From Candidatus Omnitrophota bacterium (GTDB lineage: Bacteria; Omnitrophota; Gorgyraeia; Duberdicusellales; 4484-171): a stretch of DNA of 64,000 bases. How positions within the stretch are numbered: position 1 is the stretch's first letter; every line of letters begins with the position of its first letter. Location of the stretch: assembly GCA_043823745.1 (NCBI GenBank), contig JBDRAN010000028.1, positions 67,116 to 131,115 of the forward strand. Direction: 5' to 3'. Of this stretch, positions 11,534-59,476 are shown one piece after another. The notes below the pieces were generated by a model. The model did not search any database, had not been told where the DNA came from, and saw only the letters and a program-made list of their open reading frames with translations. The position numbers and the translations under genes were made by a program.

Positions 11534-11668
11534 AATTCCAAACAGCGTTTGTATTAAAAGCATATTGCACCAAAAGGTATGACATTTTTTCCGGTATACC
11601 CCGTCGTTGCGCGAAATGTCTGAGACTATAGAAATTTTGGCGGCGCCCCGTGCGCAACCTAACCGCCT

Positions 11669-11818
11669 GCGAAGCGTTCCCGAAGGGGGCTGCGCACCAG
11701 CGCGTCCCGAAGGGGGCTGCGCACCAGCGCGTCCCGAAGGGGGCTGCGCACCAGCGCGTCCCGAAGGGGGCTGCGCACCAGCGCGTCCCGAAGGGGGCTG
11801 CGAAGCGCTCCCGCAAGG
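11669..11818. repeat. Tandem array of about five 27-bp GC-rich units (cccgaagggggctgcgcaccagcgcgt)
   Basis: There are four exact 27-bp copies plus degenerate flanking copies. Three overlapping ORFs translate it as PEGGCAPAR/PFGTRWCAA repeats. No spacers separate the units. Confidence 0.85.
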
Positions 11819-50020: not shown

Positions 50021-50073
50021 AAAAAATGCACGCTTCGCAGCCCCCTTCGGGGACGCTTCGCAGGCATTTTTTG
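50021..50073. repeat. Intergenic repeat/hairpin element (aaaaaatgc...acgcttcgcag-cccccttcgggg-acgcttcgcag...gcatttttt)
   Basis: Direct 11-mers flank a CCCC/GGGG mini-hairpin and are bracketed by inverted aaaaaatgc/gcatttttt. The core matches the GC-rich repeat family. Confidence 0.5.
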
Positions 50074-50336: not shown

Positions 50337-52304
50337 ATGAAATTATTAAACACAATCAGGCGCGGGCGCATGTGTGTTTGCCTTGTAAACATTCTTGTCT
50401 TATCTGTGGTGTTGTTGCCGCTGGCACACGCCGCAGAAGAGGCGGTATCGATCATCGATGAGGCGGTCATAGAGGCAGTTCCTGGCGAGACCCTCGCCCA
50501 TGAGGCGGTTGCGTCACCGGCAAAACTCGAAGAAGAAGAGATAGCGGGAAAGGAGGATAAAGAAATAGCGGCGGCAGCCGAGGAAAGCGAAGAGGAAGCG
50601 CTGAAGCGCCTGCGCCAGAGCATGAGCGAGGATGAGCTTTTCAGCCAGCGCGTATCGCTTGATCTTCGTAATATCGATGTTCTTGAAGCGCTCAAATTCC
50701 TCTCGACAAAAAGCGGCCTTAATATCGTCCCCACGAAAAATGTTTCCGGCCGGGTCAGCCTTACGATCGAGGACGTCCCTTTTAAGGATGTGTTTGATCT
50801 CCTGCTGCGCTCAAACGGCCTCGCGTACACAAAAGTCGGGAAAATTTATTCGGTAATGACCGAGGCGGAATATAAAGCGTTGTACGGGAAAAATTTCTTT
50901 GACGTCCGGCAGGTTAAGGTTTTACGCTTGCAATACGCGATACCCGAGCAGGCATTTACGATGCTTGACGCGATAAAGAGCGACCTGGGGCGCGTTATCA
51001 CCGATAAAGAATCGGGCAATGTCATGATCATGGATACGCCCGAGCGTATCGTTCAGATGGAAGCGGCGCTGGCGGAATTTGAAAAGCGCAATATCGTGAG
51101 AGTTTTTTCCTTAAAATACGCGCGCGCCAAAGAGGTCGAGGAGATCCTGCGCAGCCGGCTTGACGCAAAGAGCGTCGGTTCAGTGAAGGCCGATGAGCGA
51201 AATAATCAAATTATTGTTCAGACGCTTGCCGATCGTATGGACGAAATTACGACCCTTATCGGGCGCCTTGACCGGACCACCAAGGAAGTGCTCATCGATA
51301 CGAAAATTATTAAAATAAAACTTTCGGATCAGTTGACCTCGGGCCTTGAATGGGAAGGGCTTTTTAATGTTCTGAAGAAATTCGGCGGGACCTATCTTGG
51401 CTCGTATCCCTACAGCGTCATGAATGCCGGCGTTACCACGCCCGCGTTTCAGACGCGCGTTAATCAACTGGACAGCACGGGAGGCAATGTCGGATACTAC
51501 CCGTTTAGCGGCACCACCCCAGCATTAAGTACCAGCACTAAAACTGTTGTCGGTAAAAACATGCACTTTGGCATGGTTTCCGAGGATCTTGATTTTGACC
51601 TCCTTCTTAATTATTTTAATACCATCGGTAAAACCCGGGTGCTGGCAAATCCTAAAATCATCGTGGTAAACAATCAGGAGGCAAAAATCCATATCGGCGA
51701 GCGCCAGGCCTACGTTACAACGACCACAACCACGGGGCAATCCACCAGCACTGTTTCCGAAGAGGTCCAGTTCGTGGATGTGGGCATACAGCTATCCGTA
51801 ACCCCCACGATCAATGACGATGGTTTTGTTACCATGAAGGTTAAGCCGGAAATTTCAAGCGTCAGTTCGATTTTAACGACACCGACGGGAAATAAGATCC
51901 CTATTATTGATACGTCGTTAACCGAAACCACGGTTATGGTCAAGGATGGAGTTACACTGCTCATCGGCGGCTTACGCAAAGAAGAAAAATTCCTTGATTC
52001 CACGCAAACCCCGTTTTTGGGTAGTCTTCCGTTCGTGGGGAACCTTTTTAAAAGCTCGACCGATAAGACAGACAGGACTGAGCTTCTGGTTATGATAACG
52101 CCGCATATCGTTGCCGGAAATGATTTTGAAGCCGGTGCGGCGCGTGAAATCGGCGATAAGCCGCCGAAAGATTACCGCCAATATCAGCCGATTACACCCG
52201 ATAAAACGTTGCTTCCCGCCGGAGCCACACAAGGCCCGGCGCTTGCGCCTAAGTCGTACCGTGATTATTTAAGTTTTAGCGAAAAAAAAGGCGAGGATGC
52301 GTAA
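50337..52304 (+). CDS. Secretin paralog (PilQ/MshL/GspD family)
   Basis: About 65% identical to the 44133 product across the N0 and secretin domains. Acidic E-rich N-terminal extension. Confidence 0.85.
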   Translation: MKLLNTIRRGRMCVCLVNILVLSVVLLPLAHAAEEAVSIIDEAVIEAVPGETLAHEAVASPAKLEEEEIAGKEDKEIAAAAEESEEEALKRLRQSMSEDELFSQRVSLDLRNIDVLEALKFLSTKSGLNIVPTKNVSGRVSLTIEDVPFKDVFDLLLRSNGLAYTKVGKIYSVMTEAEYKALYGKNFFDVRQVKVLRLQYAIPEQAFTMLDAIKSDLGRVITDKESGNVMIMDTPERIVQMEAALAEFEKRNIVRVFSLKYARAKEVEEILRSRLDAKSVGSVKADERNNQIIVQTLADRMDEITTLIGRLDRTTKEVLIDTKIIKIKLSDQLTSGLEWEGLFNVLKKFGGTYLGSYPYSVMNAGVTTPAFQTRVNQLDSTGGNVGYYPFSGTTPALSTSTKTVVGKNMHFGMVSEDLDFDLLLNYFNTIGKTRVLANPKIIVVNNQEAKIHIGERQAYVTTTTTTGQSTSTVSEEVQFVDVGIQLSVTPTINDDGFVTMKVKPEISSVSSILTTPTGNKIPIIDTSLTETTVMVKDGVTLLIGGLRKEEKFLDSTQTPFLGSLPFVGNLFKSSTDKTDRTELLVMITPHIVAGNDFEAGAAREIGDKPPKDYRQYQPITPDKTLLPAGATQGPALAPKSYRDYLSFSEKKGEDA

Positions 52305-53396
52305 ATGAAAATGCAGGCAGGATTTTTGAAGATCATCATTAACCGGAACGTTATCTTTTTTGTTGTTCCTCTTGCCGCGGCGCTCATGGCAGCGTCATAT
52401 TTTGCCCTGAAAGCTCATACATATTCCGCGCGGCTTCGCGCGCAAGGCGGAACGTATGAGAAATTCAACAAAGAAAACGTTGAACTGCGTGATGCGTATG
52501 TTACCATAAAAAATGATTACGAAAAGATAAAAAAAGACTACGACAACATCTCGGCTGACCGCGATAATCTTCTTATCCAGATAAAGAAAAATGTCGCTGA
52601 TGTAAACCGCCTAGCCGAGCTTGAGGCAGCAACCGGAGAATTTACTAAAGAAAAGGATGGGCTTGAAAGCGAAAAGCTGGCGCTTCTTAACCAGAATGCC
52701 GATTTAAAAGAAAAAATCGATAAACTCCAGGGTGTGTATAAGCAGGCGCTTGATGCGCGTGACGCGCTCAGCGAAGAGCTCGTGCGCGCAAAAGACGCTT
52801 CGGGAAAAATGGTCCTTGAGCAGCAGAATGCTGAGCTTACCAGGCGCCTGGCTGCCGCACAGGAGGAAAACGGGCGCCTGCAGAGCGCTCAATCGGCAAC
52901 GCTTAAGCAGGCGCTGGATACGGTCACCACGCTTAAAGCGAGCGACGCGCAGCTGCAGGATAAAGTTAAGGAATACCAGCTTCACGAGAAAGAGTTAACC
53001 AAGAAATACGCCGAGGCGGTTAAGAAAACAAAATCCTTTGAAGCCAAGGTCGCGCGAGACCCGGCAAAGTTTACGGAAATTGCGCGGCAGAATAAGGCGC
53101 TTATACGCGATACCTCCACCATGCATTACAACATGGGGGTATTTTACTTAAAACAAAAAGAATATTCGCGCGCGGTAGCGGAATTTGAAAAAGCGGTTGA
53201 GCTTACTCCGGACGACGCCTACGCGCATTTTAATTTAGGTTATATGTATGCCGAGTATCTGGTGAATCGTAAAAAAGCAGTGGAGCATTTCAGGCACTAC
53301 TTGCGCGTCGCAAAGAGTGACGATAAAGACGTCGATTGGGTCAAAAAATATATCCTTACATGGGAAACATGGCAGGCTCAACAGCCAATGAAATAA
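52305..53396 (+). CDS. Coiled-coil + C-terminal TPR protein (short paralog of 46175-50017)
   Basis: N-terminal TM/signal, about 230 aa coiled coil, and a TPR tail ending KKYILTWETWQ, identical to the giant paralog's tail. Confidence 0.65.
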   Translation: MKMQAGFLKIIINRNVIFFVVPLAAALMAASYFALKAHTYSARLRAQGGTYEKFNKENVELRDAYVTIKNDYEKIKKDYDNISADRDNLLIQIKKNVADVNRLAELEAATGEFTKEKDGLESEKLALLNQNADLKEKIDKLQGVYKQALDARDALSEELVRAKDASGKMVLEQQNAELTRRLAAAQEENGRLQSAQSATLKQALDTVTTLKASDAQLQDKVKEYQLHEKELTKKYAEAVKKTKSFEAKVARDPAKFTEIARQNKALIRDTSTMHYNMGVFYLKQKEYSRAVAEFEKAVELTPDDAYAHFNLGYMYAEYLVNRKKAVEHFRHYLRVAKSDDKDVDWVKKYILTWETWQAQQPMK

Positions 53397-54448
53397 AACA
53401 GTTCTTTGGAAAGCTGGCCGCCTGCATAAGCGCAGGGGTATTTTTTTTCTCTGTATCAGGCTGCGGAAACGGTGCGTCTGCGCCGGCATTGCCGGCGCAG
53501 GTAGCGGCAGGCGCCGGTAACGAATCGGTGCGTCAACCGGATGCCGCGGAGGCTTCGGCCGACAACAATGCTGACGGTTTTGTCGGAGAGATCTTCGGTG
53601 AAAAGGTTCCGATAAACAATTATTATTTTGTGCGCGGTGTGATCGCGGTGTTCGGCAATAAGTTTGGCGCGCCGCCAAACACAAAAGAAGACCTTGAAAG
53701 TGCGATTTGGGATCAGCTCCTGTTGTCTCTGGTGGCGTTCAGCCAGAATATCAGCGTCACGCAAGAAGAAATTGACGCCGAGATAACCAGAACGCTTGCC
53801 GCGGAGCACACGGCCTTCGACCGCGTTAGCGATCCCGAAAATTACCATGAGTGGCTGCAGAAAAAAGCTGGCCTGACTCCGGAGCTTTTTGAAAATCAGA
53901 TCAGATATCTCCTGCAGCTTCAGAAACTTAAAAATCATGTTATCGACACCGTTGTTGCTCCAAGGATTACAGTAAGCGACGAGGAAGCCTACGAGGCTTT
54001 TTTACGCGAGCATAACACACTTGCGCTTGAACTTGTGCAGTTTAAGGCGCAAGAAGAGGCTGGTGCGTTCTATAAGAAAGTTGCAGGCCGTTCACGCTCC
54101 TGGGATCGGGAAAAGACGCGGTATGAAAAGGATGTACGTAAGCCGGGGTTTGTGTCGCTCGAATTTCTAATCGATCTTTGGGGAATACCTGCCGACGCTG
54201 CGTTTGCAATGGTGACGCGGTCTATCGGGGATATCTATCCGCCCCGGCCGGTCTATAAAGGATATGCGGTGTTTAAAATTCTCCAGACGCGCCAGGCAGA
54301 TACGTCGCTTTTTCCCGGAGCAAAAGAAAACTATAGGGAAAAAGTAAAGGCAAAGAAGAAAGTTTCAGGCTTTGCGAATTGGTTTGTAGGGCTTAAAAAC
54401 GCGGCCCAGATAAAAATATATGGCGAAGTACGAGATAATGTGCGATAA
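53369..54448 (+). CDS. Lipoprotein with SurA-N-like chaperone domain (tentative)
   Basis: Lipobox VSGC after a hydrophobic h-region. Alternative ATGs at 53360 and 53369. The function call is weak. Confidence 0.35.
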   Translation: MAGSTANEIKQFFGKLAACISAGVFFFSVSGCGNGASAPALPAQVAAGAGNESVRQPDAAEASADNNADGFVGEIFGEKVPINNYYFVRGVIAVFGNKFGAPPNTKEDLESAIWDQLLLSLVAFSQNISVTQEEIDAEITRTLAAEHTAFDRVSDPENYHEWLQKKAGLTPELFENQIRYLLQLQKLKNHVIDTVVAPRITVSDEEAYEAFLREHNTLALELVQFKAQEEAGAFYKKVAGRSRSWDREKTRYEKDVRKPGFVSLEFLIDLWGIPADAAFAMVTRSIGDIYPPRPVYKGYAVFKILQTRQADTSLFPGAKENYREKVKAKKKVSGFANWFVGLKNAAQIKIYGEVRDNVR

Positions 54449-54492
54449 TAGCAACTAATATGTTTTGTATCGGGAGAAAGAAGGAGGGCATC

Positions 54493-54999
54493 ATGAAGAG
54501 AATGGTTGTTCCCTTGGCGGTTTTATTTTTTGTAGCAGCCTGCGGCGTGAGCTTTGCGGCTGACAAGAAAAGAGTAGCAGCGCGCATGGGGTTATCCGAA
54601 CAGCAGCGGGTAGCGATTGCGGAGGATGCCACCGCGGCTATGACCGCTCAGGCGTGGACTATTTATCTGACTCAGCAGAACGTCGCGAGACCCAGCGTGC
54701 AGACCGACACACTCACCTTTACTTCTATGACCGTTGCTTCAACGAATCTTGTTGCCAAAGGCTATAATGTTTCTAGCTACGCGCTTAAAATAAACGATGA
54801 TGGTGGCGCGGTATGGGAAACAGTCCAGCGCAACGCGGATGACGATCTGGCGCTCTGGCGCGGCGAGTACCGGGAAGACGGGATTAACGGCGTTGTAACG
54901 ATGCGTTCAAAATCAGGCGCAACCGTGATGTATAATTTCTCAAGCGCAATGCCGGCGCTTAAGGAAGTTGGTGAGTCCGCGCCGCCAAAGAAGAAATAG
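54493..54999 (+). CDS. Small lipoprotein, unknown function
   Basis: MKRMVVPLAVLFFVAAC lipobox. Confidence 0.4.
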   Translation: MKRMVVPLAVLFFVAACGVSFAADKKRVAARMGLSEQQRVAIAEDATAAMTAQAWTIYLTQQNVARPSVQTDTLTFTSMTVASTNLVAKGYNVSSYALKINDDGGAVWETVQRNADDDLALWRGEYREDGINGVVTMRSKSGATVMYNFSSAMPALKEVGESAPPKKK

Positions 55000-55308
55000 T
55001 ATTTTCGGGAGGTGTTCAGGCGCATCAGAAGAGTTCAGAGCGTCGGGGTTTTTTGTATTCTATATATAGGTAAGAAGATGGCTCCTTTGTTAGCATTGGT
55101 AGCTATGGGTGAGACGTGCATAAGAAGAGTCTTTATACATCCCAGGGTTGTTTATGGAACCCTGGGATATTTTATTAATGAGCGCATTCTTTTTTCAAGC
55201 GACCGAAAGGGAGCGTAGAAAAAAGAATAGTGCGAATTATCTAATGAAGCTTGTCACGATGTAATCGTGACTTAGCTAAATTATCCTCGAAGGGGACAAG
55301 AAGCCTTT

Positions 55309-55347
55309 CGGTAAACTTTCGCCGGTTCCTGCCAAGAAAGTTTACCG
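55309..55347. other. Perfect 12-bp stem / 15-nt loop hairpin in a 480-bp non-coding gap
   Basis: cggtaaactttc-gccggttcctgccaa-gaaagtttaccg. The arms are exact reverse complements. Confidence 0.6.
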
Positions 55348-55496
55348 ATACCAAGAGGCAAGGGGTAATGAGACTTAGATTTTCGCGAGAGTAATGCGTA
55401 GTGAAAATCTGTAGGTGGATTATCCTGAAACCTAATTTCAACGCGGGTTTGGAAAAGGCTGGTTATTGATTGGCAAGAATAAGGAAATTATAATTT

Positions 55497-55907
55497 ATGG
55501 AGATAAAAAAGGTTCTCAGAGAGTTTAAAGTAATGACGAGGGAGCTTTATGGCCGGAGACTAAAAGAGATAATCCTTTACGGCTCCTGGGCGAGGAATGA
55601 GGCAACGCAAGACTTGGATATAGATTTGTTGATTATTCTTAAAGGAAAGGTTACCCCAGGTAGAGAGATAGATAAAATGATAGATATAATTACAGAGTTA
55701 AATTTGAAATATGGAGTGCTTTTAGCGGTTTATCCCGTTAGAAAATACCCTGTGGCTTGCTACAGGGTTCTTCCAAATTTTACGAACACGGGGTCTAATA
55801 CCCCGTGTGAGTTTTCTAACGGGATTTATCCGGTTTCTGAGGAAGAGCACTCTTTTTTTAAAAGCCCCCTGCTGATGAATGTACGAAGAGAGGGGGTGCC
55901 GGCATGA
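55497..55907 (+). CDS. MNT-type minimal nucleotidyltransferase (antitoxin of a HEPN/MNT pair)
   Basis: LYGSWARNEATQDLDIDLLII GSx(9-13)DxD motif. Confidence 0.75.
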   Translation: MEIKKVLREFKVMTRELYGRRLKEIILYGSWARNEATQDLDIDLLIILKGKVTPGREIDKMIDIITELNLKYGVLLAVYPVRKYPVACYRVLPNFTNTGSNTPCEFSNGIYPVSEEEHSFFKSPLLMNVRREGVPA

Positions 55908-56212
55908 AAAGGAAGGGAGCCGCACCGTTCATTAAAAGGGCGGAGAGATATCTTAAGAGTGCCCGGTTGCTCCTCAAAGAGGGCGACTACGAATCTTGTG
56001 TATCGAGGGTTCGATTTGGTTTTGAATATATAGAATCATTGCTGATGGCTTCGGGCAGAAAAATAATAGTAGTCGATAACACCGAGATGAAAGATGATTT
56101 AGTTCAGGATATGATTGATGTATTAACCAGTTTCTGCGCAAGATTATATGGCCGGCGTTCAGCGAAAAACCGGGCGAAAAAAGCCATACAGGCGATAGAT
56201 AATGCTGATTAA
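55904..56212 (+). pseudogene. Chimeric ORF: HEPN toxin N-terminus (about 35 aa) fused in frame to the C-terminal ~65 aa of an IS607-type serine-recombinase TnpA
   Basis: KRAERYLKSARLLLKEGDYESCVSR is a HEPN N-terminus. It is followed by VRFGFEYIESLLMASGRKIIVVDN...LVQDMIDVLTSFCARLYGRRSAKNRAKKA, typical of an IS607 TnpA C-terminus. It overlaps the tnpB start as in IS607. Confidence 0.6.
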
Positions 56213-57438
56213 CCAAGCCTATAGATACGAATTGAAGCCCAACAATAAACAAAAGACGTTGTTGGCAAAACACGCCGGCGTCGCCCGGTTTGCTTATAAT
56301 TGGGGCCTGGTCCGGCGAAAAGAGTTATACGAAAAAACGAAGGGAAGTACAACCGCCGTAAACCAGCACCGGGAATTGAATAAGCTGAAAAAAAGTGAAT
56401 TTCCCTGGATGTACGAAGTATCAAAATGCGCGCCGCAGGAAGCTTTAAGGGATTTACATCAAGCTTACCAGAATTTTTTCCGTGAGCTTAAAAAAGGCAA
56501 GAAAACAGGATTTCCCAAATTCAAAAAGAAAGACATGCATGATTCATTCCGTCTGACCGGCGCAATTGGGGCGACAGACAATACTGTACAGCTTCCCCGG
56601 CTGGGGAAAATCCGCGCAAAAGAAAGAATTGATTTAAAAGGAAGAATACTATCGGCTGCAATCAGTAAAGAGGCTGACCGGTGGTATGTAAGTTTTGCCG
56701 TAGAGAGAGATAGGAAGATAGCGGTTAATAATAACGGGGAAGCGGTGGGCATAGACCTCGGGTTGGAAAACTTCGCGGTTTTATCAGACAGCAGTCAGAT
56801 ACCTAATCCCATGTTCTATAAAAAATCATTGCGATTATTGCGGCGGAGCTGCAAGCAGCTTACCCGTAAACAAAAAAGCTCCTATAATCGCAAGAAAGCC
56901 ATAATTAAACTGAGCCGTTTACATCGCCGCGTCCGGAATAAACGGTTTGACTTTTTACATAAAGCGAGCACAGAGTTGGCGAAAACCAAGTCAATGATTG
57001 TGGTGGAAAGCTTAAATGTAAAAGGGATGGTAAAAAACCGTTGTCTAAGCGGCGCTATCAGCGATGTTGGTTGGGGCATGTTCAAAGCCATGTTGAGATA
57101 TAAGGCTTCCTGGTATGGTTCAAAACTGATAGAAGCGCCGGACTTTTTCCCTTCATCGCGGATATGCAGTAACTGCGGCACTTATAATGCCGCTTTAGAA
57201 CTAAGTGACCGCGTATTTGAGTGTCCGGGATGCGGATTGCGAATCAACCGCGATTTAAACGCGGCGGTTAATTTAAAGAAGTATACTACCGCAAGTTCTG
57301 CGGGAAGTTACGCCTGTAGAGATACCTCTGGCGGCGGAATTCCGATAAAACGGGAGTCTACGAGTCATGTATCGCTGAAGCAGGAAGCAGACGCCAAATC
57401 TTCCTCGGGAATATTTGGGTAAGTTCTGTGGAACGGTT
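56009..57438 (+). mobile_element. IS607-like element remnant (5'-truncated tnpA + intact tnpB) inserted in a HEPN gene
   Basis: The host HEPN reading frame stops at about 56009 and resumes at about 57439 ([14 protein letters not shown]). Confidence 0.6.
56202..57422 (+). CDS. tnpB: TnpB (IS605/IS607 OrfB family RuvC-like RNA-guided endonuclease)
   Basis: N-terminal [15 protein letters not shown]. Ruv[13 protein letters not shown], Ruv[14 protein letters not shown], zinc finger CSNCG...CPGCG, Ruv[14 protein letters not shown]. Confidence 0.85.
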
Positions 57439-57719
57439 TACTACGCTATGTTTTATGCGACAGAAGCGGTATTGCTTACGAAAAATTTGTCATTCTCTTC
57501 TCACAAAGCGGTGATTTCCGCCTTTGGAGAGCACTTTGTCAAAACTGGATTTTTTCCAAAGATATGGGCAGAGAACTTAACCGGGCGTTTGAGAAAAAAC
57601 AATTAGGGGATTATAGCGCTGCTTTTGTAATCTCTCAAGAGGAAGCCAGAGAATTACTTGAAGAAGGTAATGAATTTATACGTAAGATTACCCAACATTT
57701 AAAAGAGCTCGGAGCATAG
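57439..57719 (+). pseudogene. HEPN toxin gene, C-terminal part, with a +/-1 frameshift in a T6 run near 57545
   Basis: [38 protein letters not shown], then a frame switch to ...[54 protein letters not shown]. Confidence 0.6.
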
Positions 57720-57789
57720 CTACATTCTCATTAAAGGCCTACTATGCCGTATCCCATCGTTCCGCGGCTGCGTGTTAAAACGGGAGCAG

Positions 57790-58090
57790 TTAAGAAATGA
57801 AAAACACCATGAACAAAAAAAAGAATTCCGTTAGCGCACTCGTAACTTTTATTCTAATCTGTTTCCCAGCAGCCCCCGGTTTTACCCAAGGAACCCAGGG
57901 CACCCTCGCACTAAAAGGCCCCCAGTTTAATAAGACGCGCGTTGCCAAAGAAATCCAGGGGGAAGTGACATGGATAGCCCGTGACCGCATTGCTCTTGTC
58001 TTTAGCAGCACCGCCGATAGCGAGCAAGAGATACTGCTTCCCTTTGACGCGGATGCCCAGATTGTGCACAAGAGATTGAGGAATTCATAA
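57790..58090 (+). pseudogene. Truncated copy of a small secreted protein (paralog of 59003-59476)
   Basis: Signal peptide plus the shared QFNKTRVAKEIQGEVTW...LLPFDADAQIVHK segment, about 90% nucleotide identity over about 150 bp. It ends prematurely relative to the paralog. Confidence 0.5.
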
Positions 58091-58185
58091 AAGAAATGAG
58101 TTATGAAGAGTTTGTAACCACCAAAGTGAACGCCATTGGAAAGGTGCATGGATTCAACCTGCGAGGTTGAATCGGTGAAAAGGTT

Positions 58186-58578
58186 ATGAAGGAAGAGACC
58201 AAAAATTGGTTAGAGATGGTTGAGTATGATTTAGCTACGGCTCAAGAAATGTTTAAGGCAGGCCGTTATGTCTATGTTATTTTTATGTGTCATCTGGCTA
58301 CCGAGAAGGTTCTGAAAGCGATAATCTGCGAAGAGACAAATAAGGTTCCTCCCAAAACACATGATTTAATTTATTTGGTTAATCTTGGGAAAGTTGAGCT
58401 GTCTAGTGATTTGCTGGATTTTCTTGGCATAATAAATAATGCCGGTATAGTAACAAGGTATCCTGAAGATTTATCAAAACTTGTTTTAAGTTATCCCGAA
58501 GAAGTCGCTAAGAAATATTTAGACAAAACACAAGAGGTAATAAAATGCATAAAGCAAGACCCGAGGTTAAAGAAATAA
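58186..58578 (+). CDS. HEPN-domain toxin
   Basis: WLEMVEYDLATAQEMFKAGRY...HLATEKVLKA HEPN pattern. Overlaps the downstream MNT gene. Confidence 0.7.
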   Translation: MKEETKNWLEMVEYDLATAQEMFKAGRYVYVIFMCHLATEKVLKAIICEETNKVPPKTHDLIYLVNLGKVELSSDLLDFLGIINNAGIVTRYPEDLSKLVLSYPEEVAKKYLDKTQEVIKCIKQDPRLKK

Positions 58579-58868
58579 TAGAAGAATATAAACAAGCGTT
58601 AAAAGCATTGGGAATTAATGCTGAAGGTGTGATTCTTTACGGTTCACATGTATTAGGAAATCAGAGAGAAGACAGCGATATAGATGTGATGGTTGTCTCA
58701 AAAGATTTTAGAAATTTAAACTTACGAGAGAGGCTTGAGATTTTGGGTATAGCAGCCGCAAGGATGCACAAACCCATTGAAGCAAAGGGATATACCCCAG
58801 AAGAAATAGAGGCGGCTCAAGAAGCCAGTTTTTTAAAAGAAATTTTAGAAGGGGGGGTTAGTATTTAA
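58545..58868 (+). CDS. MNT nucleotidyltransferase antitoxin
   Basis: ILYGSHVLGNQREDSDIDVMVV motif. Confidence 0.75.
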   Translation: MHKARPEVKEIIEEYKQALKALGINAEGVILYGSHVLGNQREDSDIDVMVVSKDFRNLNLRERLEILGIAAARMHKPIEAKGYTPEEIEAAQEASFLKEILEGGVSI

Positions 58869-59002: not shown

Positions 59003-59476
59003 ATGCACAAACAATCAAGCGTCATGAACATGAGGAAACATTATATTGGTGCGCTCATAATTTTTATTCTAATCAGTTTTCTGGCAACTTCCGGTTTTGC
59101 CCGGGACACCCCCGAATTAAAAAAGCCCCAGTTTAATAAGACGCGCGTTGCCAAAGAAATCCAGGGGGAAGTAACCTGGCTGGCCCGTGACCGCATTGCC
59201 GTTGTCTTTAGCAGCACCGCAGATAGCGAACAAGAGATGCTGCTTCCCTTTGATGCGGATGTCCAGATTGTACATAAAAAAGGATTACGCGACATCGGCG
59301 TCGGCGACGCGGTAAGTGTTGCGTACGAAGAGGTAACCGAGGAAACGCCGGAAGGCGCAAAAACCAGGCGTAAGGCAAAATCAATAACTTTTTTACGCAA
59401 GGCTCCGGCTAAGCCGACCCCTTATGGCGTAGAGGACAAAGATACGGGAGTGTTGGTTAGCGGCGTTGGGGAGTAG
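59003..59476 (+). CDS. Small secreted protein of unknown function (full-length paralog)
   Basis: Signal peptide IGALIIFILISFLATSGFA and conserved core. 157 aa. Confidence 0.55.
   Translation: MHKQSSVMNMRKHYIGALIIFILISFLATSGFARDTPELKKPQFNKTRVAKEIQGEVTWLARDRIAVVFSSTADSEQEMLLPFDADVQIVHKKGLRDIGVGDAVSVAYEEVTEETPEGAKTRRKAKSITFLRKAPAKPTPYGVEDKDTGVLVSGVGE

Follow-up and report, generated by a model that had tools for sequence, protein, structure and literature searches.

The described elements closest to the one treated here are two members of the IS607 family of insertion sequences (IS), ISXfa1 from Xylella fastidiosa (PMC10711439) and CboIStron (Zedaveinyte et al., bioRxiv 10.1101/2023.11.20.567912). 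In ISXfa1 a serine-recombinase gene, tnpA, is followed by an overlapping tnpB; there are no inverted repeats and no target duplication, the cores are GG, and an omegaRNA (reRNA) of ~150 nt covers the 3' end of tnpB, with its guide following the flanking G (PMC10711439). CboIStron integrates strictly at GG, prefers an xGGG target that doubles as its target-adjacent motif (TAM), and is retained through cleavage of the empty donor joint by its TnpB-omegaRNA complex (bioRxiv 10.1101/2023.11.20.567912). Recombinases of the IS607 family cross over at the dinucleotide GG, GGG/TGGG TAMs have been published for these two elements, and excision requires ~40 bp of left end (LE) and ~60 bp of right end (RE) (PMC10711439; bioRxiv 10.1101/2023.11.20.567912); deletion of the LE abolishes excision in CboIStron (bioRxiv 10.1101/2023.11.20.567912). 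The stretch analysed here ("the window") is 64,000 nt from Candidatus Omnitrophota bacterium (assembly GCA_043823745.1, contig JBDRAN010000028.1, forward-strand positions 67,116 to 131,115). It contains an IS607-family remnant, with a complete tnpB but only the tail of tnpA and no LE, inside a gene of the HEPN family (UPF0332/PF05168). Very probably an IS607 element was inserted into this gene and later lost its left side, leaving a stranded and drifting tnpB/omegaRNA unit. The insert and the two parts of its host gene are laid out as follows.

55904-56011, forward strand: HEPN 5' fragment, codons 1-35 plus the shared GGTT (Pfam HEPN positions 4-31)
56008-56011, forward strand: left junction GGTT, common to the HEPN target (AGG GTT TAC) and a tnpA Leu-Val pair (CTG GTT); BLAST identity to the full-length copies L046 and L047 begins at 56008
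56009-56212, forward strand: tnpA remnant, the C-terminal 67 codons of an IS607 serine recombinase (NF033518, L046 TnpA, and alignment to five full-length TnpAs)
56202-57422, forward strand: tnpB, 406 codons, reading frame open (three Pfam domains; NCBIfam TnpB models matched end to end)
57435-57436, forward strand: right-end core GG, the element ending at 57436 (twelve related copies; identity to L046 stops at 57436)
57436-57719, forward strand: HEPN 3' fragment, codons 36-129, frameshifted (open reading frames 57415-57606 and 57564-57719; Pfam HEPN positions 29-74)

Between 55497 and 57719 the forward strand carries a chain of overlapping open reading frames (ORFs; 55497-55907; 55904-56212, 102 codons; 56202-57422, 406 codons), followed by two short ones in different frames (57415-57606 and 57564-57719); minus-strand ORFs of the region are short and lie inside the forward-strand genes. 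The 102-codon ORF is chimeric: residues 9-36 correspond to Pfam HEPN positions 4-31, and residues 36-102 are the tail of an IS607 transposase. A first-pass annotation of this DNA, made from the letters alone, had proposed a single HEPN frame interrupted by about 1.43 kb, and the two fragments do belong to one gene. The insert measures 1,427-1,429 bp, varying with the assignment of the shared GGTT, and separates codon 35 from codon 36 in a gene of 129 codons, all of which are kept. Rejoined in silico, and with one 1-nt frameshift repaired, the gene encodes a 129-aa protein that is a single PF05168 stretch (75.3 bits, E 5.9e-21; 22.9 and 18.8 bits for the fragments alone). It has more than 1000 homologues, the best of which are 124-131 aa long and 66-73% identical; their alignment is gap-free at the junction, and one of them (P0121) has an identical EGDYESCVSRVYYAMFYS (CVSRVYYAMFY). 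As the gene stands there is no contiguous HEPN domain, both because of the 1.43-kb split and because of the frameshift, a 1-nt deletion in CCAAAG (57556-57561) of the 3' part that is seen in the homologue alignment and had been missed at first.

The insert is the right-hand 1,429 bp, at 97.2% identity, of full-length copies of ~1,875 bp found in two ENA assemblies (L046 and L047, members of the 90% cluster of the window TnpB); in BLASTN, these loci give a single match to the window, 56008-57436. The full-length copies have a 192-aa TnpA upstream of a 406-aa TnpB, and an LE located ~72 nt before the tnpA start. In the window, what remains of tnpA matches NCBIfam NF033518 at positions 131-187 of 187 (E 1.6e-20), and tblastn with the L046 TnpA aligns residues 126-192 (97% identity, E 8e-40). 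This is the C-terminal recombinase piece of some 65 aa, fused in frame to the HEPN N-terminus, that had been predicted, its length now set at 67 aa. This short piece is not detected by the Pfam Resolvase model. Neither the N-terminal helix-turn-helix (HTH) of TnpA nor its YARVSSSDQ serine motif is found by tblastn anywhere in the window, which thus holds no intact serine-recombinase TnpA with a MerR-like HTH and a catalytic Ser domain. Searches by blastn and tblastn likewise return neither the LE motif (AACAGTTAAA, with its TTGACA promoter) nor tnpA codons 1-125 from the window. The first-pass annotation was right that tnpA is truncated and fell short on the extent, since the missing ~448 bp comprise the whole LE as well as the 5' part of tnpA (codons 1-125).

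The rest of the element is organized as in its relatives. The tnpA stop (56210-56212) overlaps the tnpB start (56202) by 11 nt (ATGCTGATTAA), an arrangement that is identical in L001 and similar in L003-L005 and L046; relatives whose TnpB proteins are 59-70% identical to that of the window all have the canonical tnpA-tnpB organization. Their ends read flank-GG-GTAAAAAACAGTT...GTGGAAC-GG-flank, and the LE of full-length copies flank-GG-GTAAAAAACAGTTAAA...TTGACA..., ~72-75 nt ahead of the tnpA start. Twelve right ends, including that of the window, are identical up to ...GTTCTGTGGAACGG and diverge straight after; over ...GGGTAAGTTCTGTGGAACGG the window matches 10 of 11 other copies, L001 being different at its first bases and L044 having three substitutions. 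GG flanks every related full-length copy and is present in the window at 56008-56009 and 57435-57436, with no inverted repeats, no target duplication, and no HEPN codon duplicated or lost. No second RE, omegaRNA, tnpA, or tnpB is found elsewhere in the 64-kb window, and the base composition of the insert is indistinguishable from that of its surroundings.

The insert is therefore the remnant of an IS607-family member, not a functional one. Because both the LE and an intact TnpA are absent, it should be immobile and not excisable, judging from the published requirements for excision. It resembles ISXfa1 in its gene order and overlap, in its GG cores, in the lack of inverted repeats and target duplication, in an omegaRNA that runs over the 3' end of tnpB, and in a GGG-like TAM (AGGG in the empty site reconstructed for the window); it differs in lacking the LE and tnpA codons 1-125, in having a scaffold of a distinct clade undetected by Rfam, and in that its activity and TAM are predicted. 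With CboIStron it shares the GG integration site and the xGGG type of target; the window element has neither the group I intron nor the ~40-bp LE of CboIStron, and with the LE absent the retention function of TnpB has nothing left to act on. Also comparable are N-terminally truncated IS607 recombinase copies such as ISBce17 (PMC9956272) and tnpB-only loci, where tnpB likewise stands beside a recombinase without its N-terminal DNA-binding part. Unlike ISBce17, the window copy has also lost the catalytic serine region, and here the junction is exact, a progenitor-like copy is available, and the host gene can be reconstructed.

The 406-aa TnpB is complete, as had been expected of it. It aligns with ISDra2 TnpB (PDB 8EXA) over residues 1-375 (E 7.7e-73) and has the RuvC catalytic triad, D185 (GIDLG), E269 (VVESLN), and D351 (NRDLN), together with two CxxC pairs of zinc-finger cysteines (C322/C325 and C341/C344). 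The exact protein is annotated on a 136-kb contig of a Candidatus Omnitrophota metagenome-assembled genome (MAG). In its D-E-D triad and zinc-finger cysteines it is like ISDra2 TnpB (PDB 8EXA/8H1J); in contrast to ISDra2, which is an IS200/IS605 element with a Y1 transposase and a TTGAT TAM, it is paired with a serine recombinase, and its C-terminal tail is encoded by the omegaRNA scaffold. The HEPN frame restarts 14 nt past the tnpB stop, where ~15 nt had been estimated. From this short distance an omegaRNA overlapping the 3' end of tnpB, with its guide reading into HEPN, had been predicted; it is found in the expected place.

57277-57436, forward strand: omegaRNA (reRNA) scaffold, overlapping the tnpB 3' end (covariance model from 18 other elements)
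57289-57303, forward strand: stem-loop 1 of the scaffold
57313-57384, forward strand: long central stem
57387-57429, forward strand: 3' stem-loop
57430-57436, forward strand: tail GGAACGG
57437-57456, forward strand: predicted guide, TTTACTACGCTATGTTTTAT, directly 3' of the scaffold and equivalent to HEPN codons V36 (from its second base) to YYAMFY

No Rfam model detects this clade (a permissive scan of 55000-58500 gives zero matches), so a purpose-built covariance model was used; its 18 sequences exclude the window and its near-identical siblings. Across the 64-kb window its sole match is 57277-57436 on the forward strand (182.9 bits, E 3.5e-44), covering 160 of 160 positions without a non-canonical pair. 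RNAalifold predicts 42 pairs for the 18 sequences, 15 of them with compensatory changes, and 48 pairs, nine with compensatory changes, for a set of 11. Among the relatives, nucleotide conservation of the last 150-160 nt is far above that of the rest of tnpB. The scaffold differs from that of L046 at two positions, both of which preserve pairing (U-G for C-G, U-A for U-G), and the tnpB codons that overlap it (362-406) show zero non-synonymous differences to L046. This is thus a structured omegaRNA that ends exactly at the transposon boundary. Like that of CboIStron it has three stem-loops and possibly a nexus pseudoknot, for which the candidate partners are loop GUUC (57295-57298) and GAAC (57431-57434), both invariant.

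With guide placement modelled on ISXfa1 (PMC10711439), the guide is predicted to begin after the GG, at 57437 (TTTACTACGCTATGTT..., HEPN codons (V)YYAMFY); no second match to it with up to three mismatches is present in the window. Immediately before the guide match, the reconstructed empty site has AGGG and the present locus ACGG. In eleven insertions of this clade the base 5' of the left GG is A in five, G in five, T in one, and C in none, while every RE has C; this is the pattern expected if the base before GG were part of the TAM and protected the donor, and the clade TAM is likely DGG. The TnpB-omegaRNA complex would then target an uninterrupted HEPN allele (...AGGG|TTTACTACGCTATG...) and leave its own locus, with CGG at the end of the RE, uncut. 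Such TAM- and guide-dependent cleavage by the window TnpB is a prediction by analogy with the published elements.

A promoter-like site is found only upstream of the nucleotidyltransferase (NTase) gene that precedes HEPN (55466-55494), and no strong promoter was found between it and tnpB. Since the three ORFs overlap (the NTase stop and HEPN start in ATGA, the tnpA stop and tnpB start as above), tnpB is likely transcribed from this toxin-antitoxin (TA) promoter and translationally coupled; it would now be the third cistron of an NTase-HEPN operon.

Across the left junction the sequence is AAAGACAGGCTGGTTCGATTTGG in the full-length copy and TGTGTATCGAGGGTTCGATTTGG in the window, and the HEPN target continues ...GAGGGTTTACTAC...; the truncated unit begins with GGTTCGATTTGG, and the reconstructed empty HEPN site is ...TCGAGGGTTTACTACGC.... 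Right up to the point of the original insertion the host flank is unaltered, which favours a site-specific origin. The same HEPN::tnpA junction is present in a second MAG (L048, GCA_018827245.1), 99.5% identical over window positions 51497-56058, whose contig ends 50 nt into the element, as expected at a repeat.

The order of events we infer is the following. An IS607 element of ~1,875 bp (LE, tnpA, tnpB, and omegaRNA/RE) would have been integrated by its serine recombinase at GG between HEPN codons 35 and 36. Some 448 bp, the LE with its promoter and tnpA codons 1-125, would then have been lost from the left, with the new joint placed in the GGTT common to target and tnpA and the tnpA tail brought into frame with HEPN by chance. 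No empty site could arise any more, and the nuclease would be left stranded and drifting. Recombination at an internal GG is the most likely source of the deletion, and could have taken either of two routes: TnpA may have crossed the LE with an internal GG pseudo-site, or a second copy may have nested at the internal GG, after which the DNA between the outer LE and the inner RE would have been excised. The joint may also have been made by microhomology-mediated deletion. Its exactness hints at a recombinase-made or homing-related truncation, but a single junction cannot decide between a recombinase-made joint and a microhomology joint.

Several observations weigh against one or another part of this account. 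TnpA crossover requires only GG, and the TT that follows it also matches the right flank; the chance of the extra 2-nt match is 1/16, and a 4-nt microhomology explains the joint no worse than a TnpA crossover does. Deletion at GG by TnpA was rejected as a general rule, since the breakpoints of five other truncated copies (L051, L106, L137, L044, and L045) are not at GG. Neither a full-length occupant of this HEPN site nor the empty site turned up in any collection, although the metagenome scan was aimed at a 17-mer of the RE and not at the site. The expression and activity of tnpB are predicted from sequence, and the terminator-like hairpins of a 90-nt element in the NTase gene could reduce read-through into it. 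As to drift, the window tnpB differs from that of L046 by 39 nt and 27 residues, with a ratio of non-synonymous to synonymous substitution rates (dN/dS) of 0.71, or 0.85 outside the scaffold, against 0.23-0.28 for other full-length pairs, figures computed from just 11 synonymous and 28 non-synonymous differences. Polarised with 59 relatives, about half of the derived changes fall in the L046 lineage; at conserved positions (those kept in at least 44 of the 59) there are seven window-derived changes and six in L046. By these counts, small as they are, tnpB is under relaxed selection and evolves close to neutrality, with constraint weak.

It is possible, though doubtful, that the junction records the birth of tnpB-only loci, whether by deletion from LE to internal GG, by excision of a nested copy, or by aborted homing sealed at GGTT; in each case the guide RNA would have been left permanently aimed at intact HEPN and expressed from the TA promoter. 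The left joint would then be a natural trace of a reaction that has yet to be reported for IS607 elements. The homing version differs most from the order of events proposed above: an empty HEPN allele would have been cut by TnpB, a sister element copied leftwards from its RE through tnpB into part of tnpA, and the copying aborted and sealed via GGTT, much as 5' truncation occurs in long interspersed nuclear elements (LINEs). TnpB-driven homing of IS607-family elements has been published (bioRxiv 10.1101/2023.11.20.567912), and the junction shares with the empty site four nucleotides, including the TT to the right of the GG core, where crossover by TnpA needs the GG only. That is, however, one junction with a 1/16 chance of the 2-nt extra match, with no population evidence behind it; when homologous recombination involves a sister chromosome, the entire element is normally copied, and a comparable signature is seen in no other truncated copy. 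A failed homing event is thus an unlikely origin for the truncation.

That the unit is still mobile, as a non-autonomous tnpB/omegaRNA element moved in trans by TnpA and inserted in its present form, is very improbable. Non-autonomous derivatives of the clade are known, namely a tnpB-only form with LE (L130) and a miniature LE plus omegaRNA form with two copies in one sample (L058/L081), and the break of the second MAG contig 50 nt into the element suggests other copies in that community. Those derivatives all retain the LE, however, whereas the window copy opens within the coding part of tnpA (97% identity to the internal tnpA of L046) and has no LE motif, and loss of the LE is what abolishes CboIStron excision (bioRxiv 10.1101/2023.11.20.567912). 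There is no second copy in the window, and its left boundary is found in none of 92 metagenome matches to the RE 17-mer, many of which are chance matches in unrelated genes.

Co-option by the host, hardly more credible, could take two forms. TnpB-omegaRNA expressed from the TA promoter might destroy incoming or restored intact HEPN alleles, or the HEPN'-'TnpA fusion, which includes the recombinase E-helix, might interfere with the TnpA of other copies. The fusion is in frame, the start/stop overlaps are kept along NTase, fusion, and tnpB, tnpB retains its ORF and catalytic residues, and the omegaRNA is whole, with the guide on the invariant HEPN codons YAMFY. Nevertheless, an in-frame fusion has a chance of 1/3, a dN/dS of ~0.7-0.85 and seven derived changes at conserved TnpB positions argue against maintained function, and decay extends to the TA module around the element (frameshift, R90K, NTase insertion); the guide has no further target in the window, and the fusion ORF is not found in a collection of 15 billion proteins. 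Finally, a chimeric MAG contig joining a HEPN gene to an IS copy can scarcely be entertained, even though the window does come from a metagenome-assembled genome, its HEPN frameshift is in a homopolymer run, and IS copies are classic misassembly sites: an independent assembly has the left junction too, at 99.5% identity, and a chimera would not give an exact canonical RE boundary together with HEPN halves that fit with no codon lost or duplicated.

Insertion followed by loss of the left side, the reading preferred here, makes this an ordinary and well-understood kind of mobile-element remnant, with no departure from known biology. In annotation the locus is best given as one HEPN pseudogene with an inserted IS607-family remnant that lacks its LE, and not split into three small genes. 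The copies compared here define an IS clade by its ends, GG core, likely DGG TAM, and 160-nt omegaRNA with covariation support, a definition that can be reused in annotating Omnitrophota and related MAGs; beyond annotation the locus is of little importance. The precise junction is one tidy example of a tnpB/omegaRNA unit becoming stranded, and one case cannot establish the mechanism.

Derivatives of the clade take many forms in metagenomes (L130; L058, L081; L038/L106, L051, L113, L065, L137, L044, L045; L091). Besides the tnpB-only form with LE and the miniature LE plus omegaRNA form, whose two copies in one sample have different right flanks, they include solo omegaRNA/right-end remnants of 70-224 nt and a form in which the tnpA 3' end runs directly into the final 41 nt of the RE. 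A breakpoint hot spot near tnpA codon ~127 was considered and dropped: in L108 the upstream tnpA is decayed, not cleanly cut, and the L114 case, 3 nt off the homologous position, is merely the start of the stored locus, ten contigs with the same TnpB (L141-L150) carrying a full-length, frameshifted tnpA and an LE. The full-length copies L046 and L047 themselves sit between the N-terminal 49 and the ~38 C-terminal codons of a HAD-hydrolase gene (L046 3217-3360 and 5236-5350), the middle of which (~120 codons) is missing; there, insertion is associated with deletion of host DNA.

Related copies are found repeatedly in or beside TA genes (L003, 1838-3558; L108, upstream; L141-L150, ~650-1770; L039, after 125). 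The neighbours are a Fic fragment with two Phd/ParE pairs, a RelE-like gene, a Polbeta NTase/HepT-like pair, and a HEPN-like FRHxFRNxY gene. The probable reason is that insertions are tolerated in genomes rich in TA genes, and not that such genes are targeted.

The gene upstream of the interrupted HEPN completes the host module.

55497-55907, forward strand: NTase gene, MNT-like antitoxin candidate (Pfam NTP_transf_2, E 6.4e-9; Polbeta)

Its final 4 nt, ATGA, also contain the HEPN start, and an identical NTase protein is annotated in two Omnitrophota MAGs. As in MNT/HEPN-type modules (NTase plus PF05168/UPF0332 HEPN), the NTase gene thus overlaps the start of an adjacent HEPN gene, here of 129 codons; the window copy differs from such modules in having been inactivated three times, by the IS insertion, the HEPN frameshift, and a 96-nt insertion in the NTase gene, and in a substitution of Lys for a near-invariant Arg at HEPN residue 90 (~57597-57599; R90K, FEKRQ to FEKKQ). 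The frameshift and R90K are covered by one assembly only, and may be sequencing errors. The HEPN gene is a pseudogene twice over, through IS insertion and frameshift, and the module as a whole is decaying, with R90K and the NTase insertion as further signs; the label "toxin" for HEPN is putative, following its family annotation.

The NTase insertion is a 90-nt element (55734-55823) whose terminal inverted repeats, 12 nt long and perfect (CCCGTTAGAAAA / TTTTCTAACGGG), enclose two GC-rich hairpins; it is in frame, and amounts to 96 nt when an imperfect direct repeat, G/ATTTAT, is counted. Its predicted RNA fold has a free energy of -49.1 kcal/mol (z -7.6), and the hairpins are terminator-like on both strands. 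There is one copy in the window, also carried by the second MAG (L048), and it looks like a miniature inverted-repeat transposable element.

A second, apparently intact HEPN (58186-58578) / NTase (58545-58868) pair lies 0.5 kb downstream of the interrupted one. It is bracketed by direct repeats of ~270 nt with 88% identity (57808-58071 and 59023-59277), which are the 5' parts of paralogous genes for small secreted proteins, one truncated (57797-58090, 97 aa) and the other of 157 aa (59003-59476). The layout is as if this pair had been inserted into, or duplicated with, a secreted-protein gene.

The window also contains a GC-rich unit of 27 nt, TCCCGAAGGGGGCTGCGCACCAGCGCG, in five tandem copies, with inverted relatives ~11 kb and ~38 kb off (11651-11812, 804-888, and 50036-50065), a hairpin repeat family resembling repetitive extragenic palindromic (REP) sequences.

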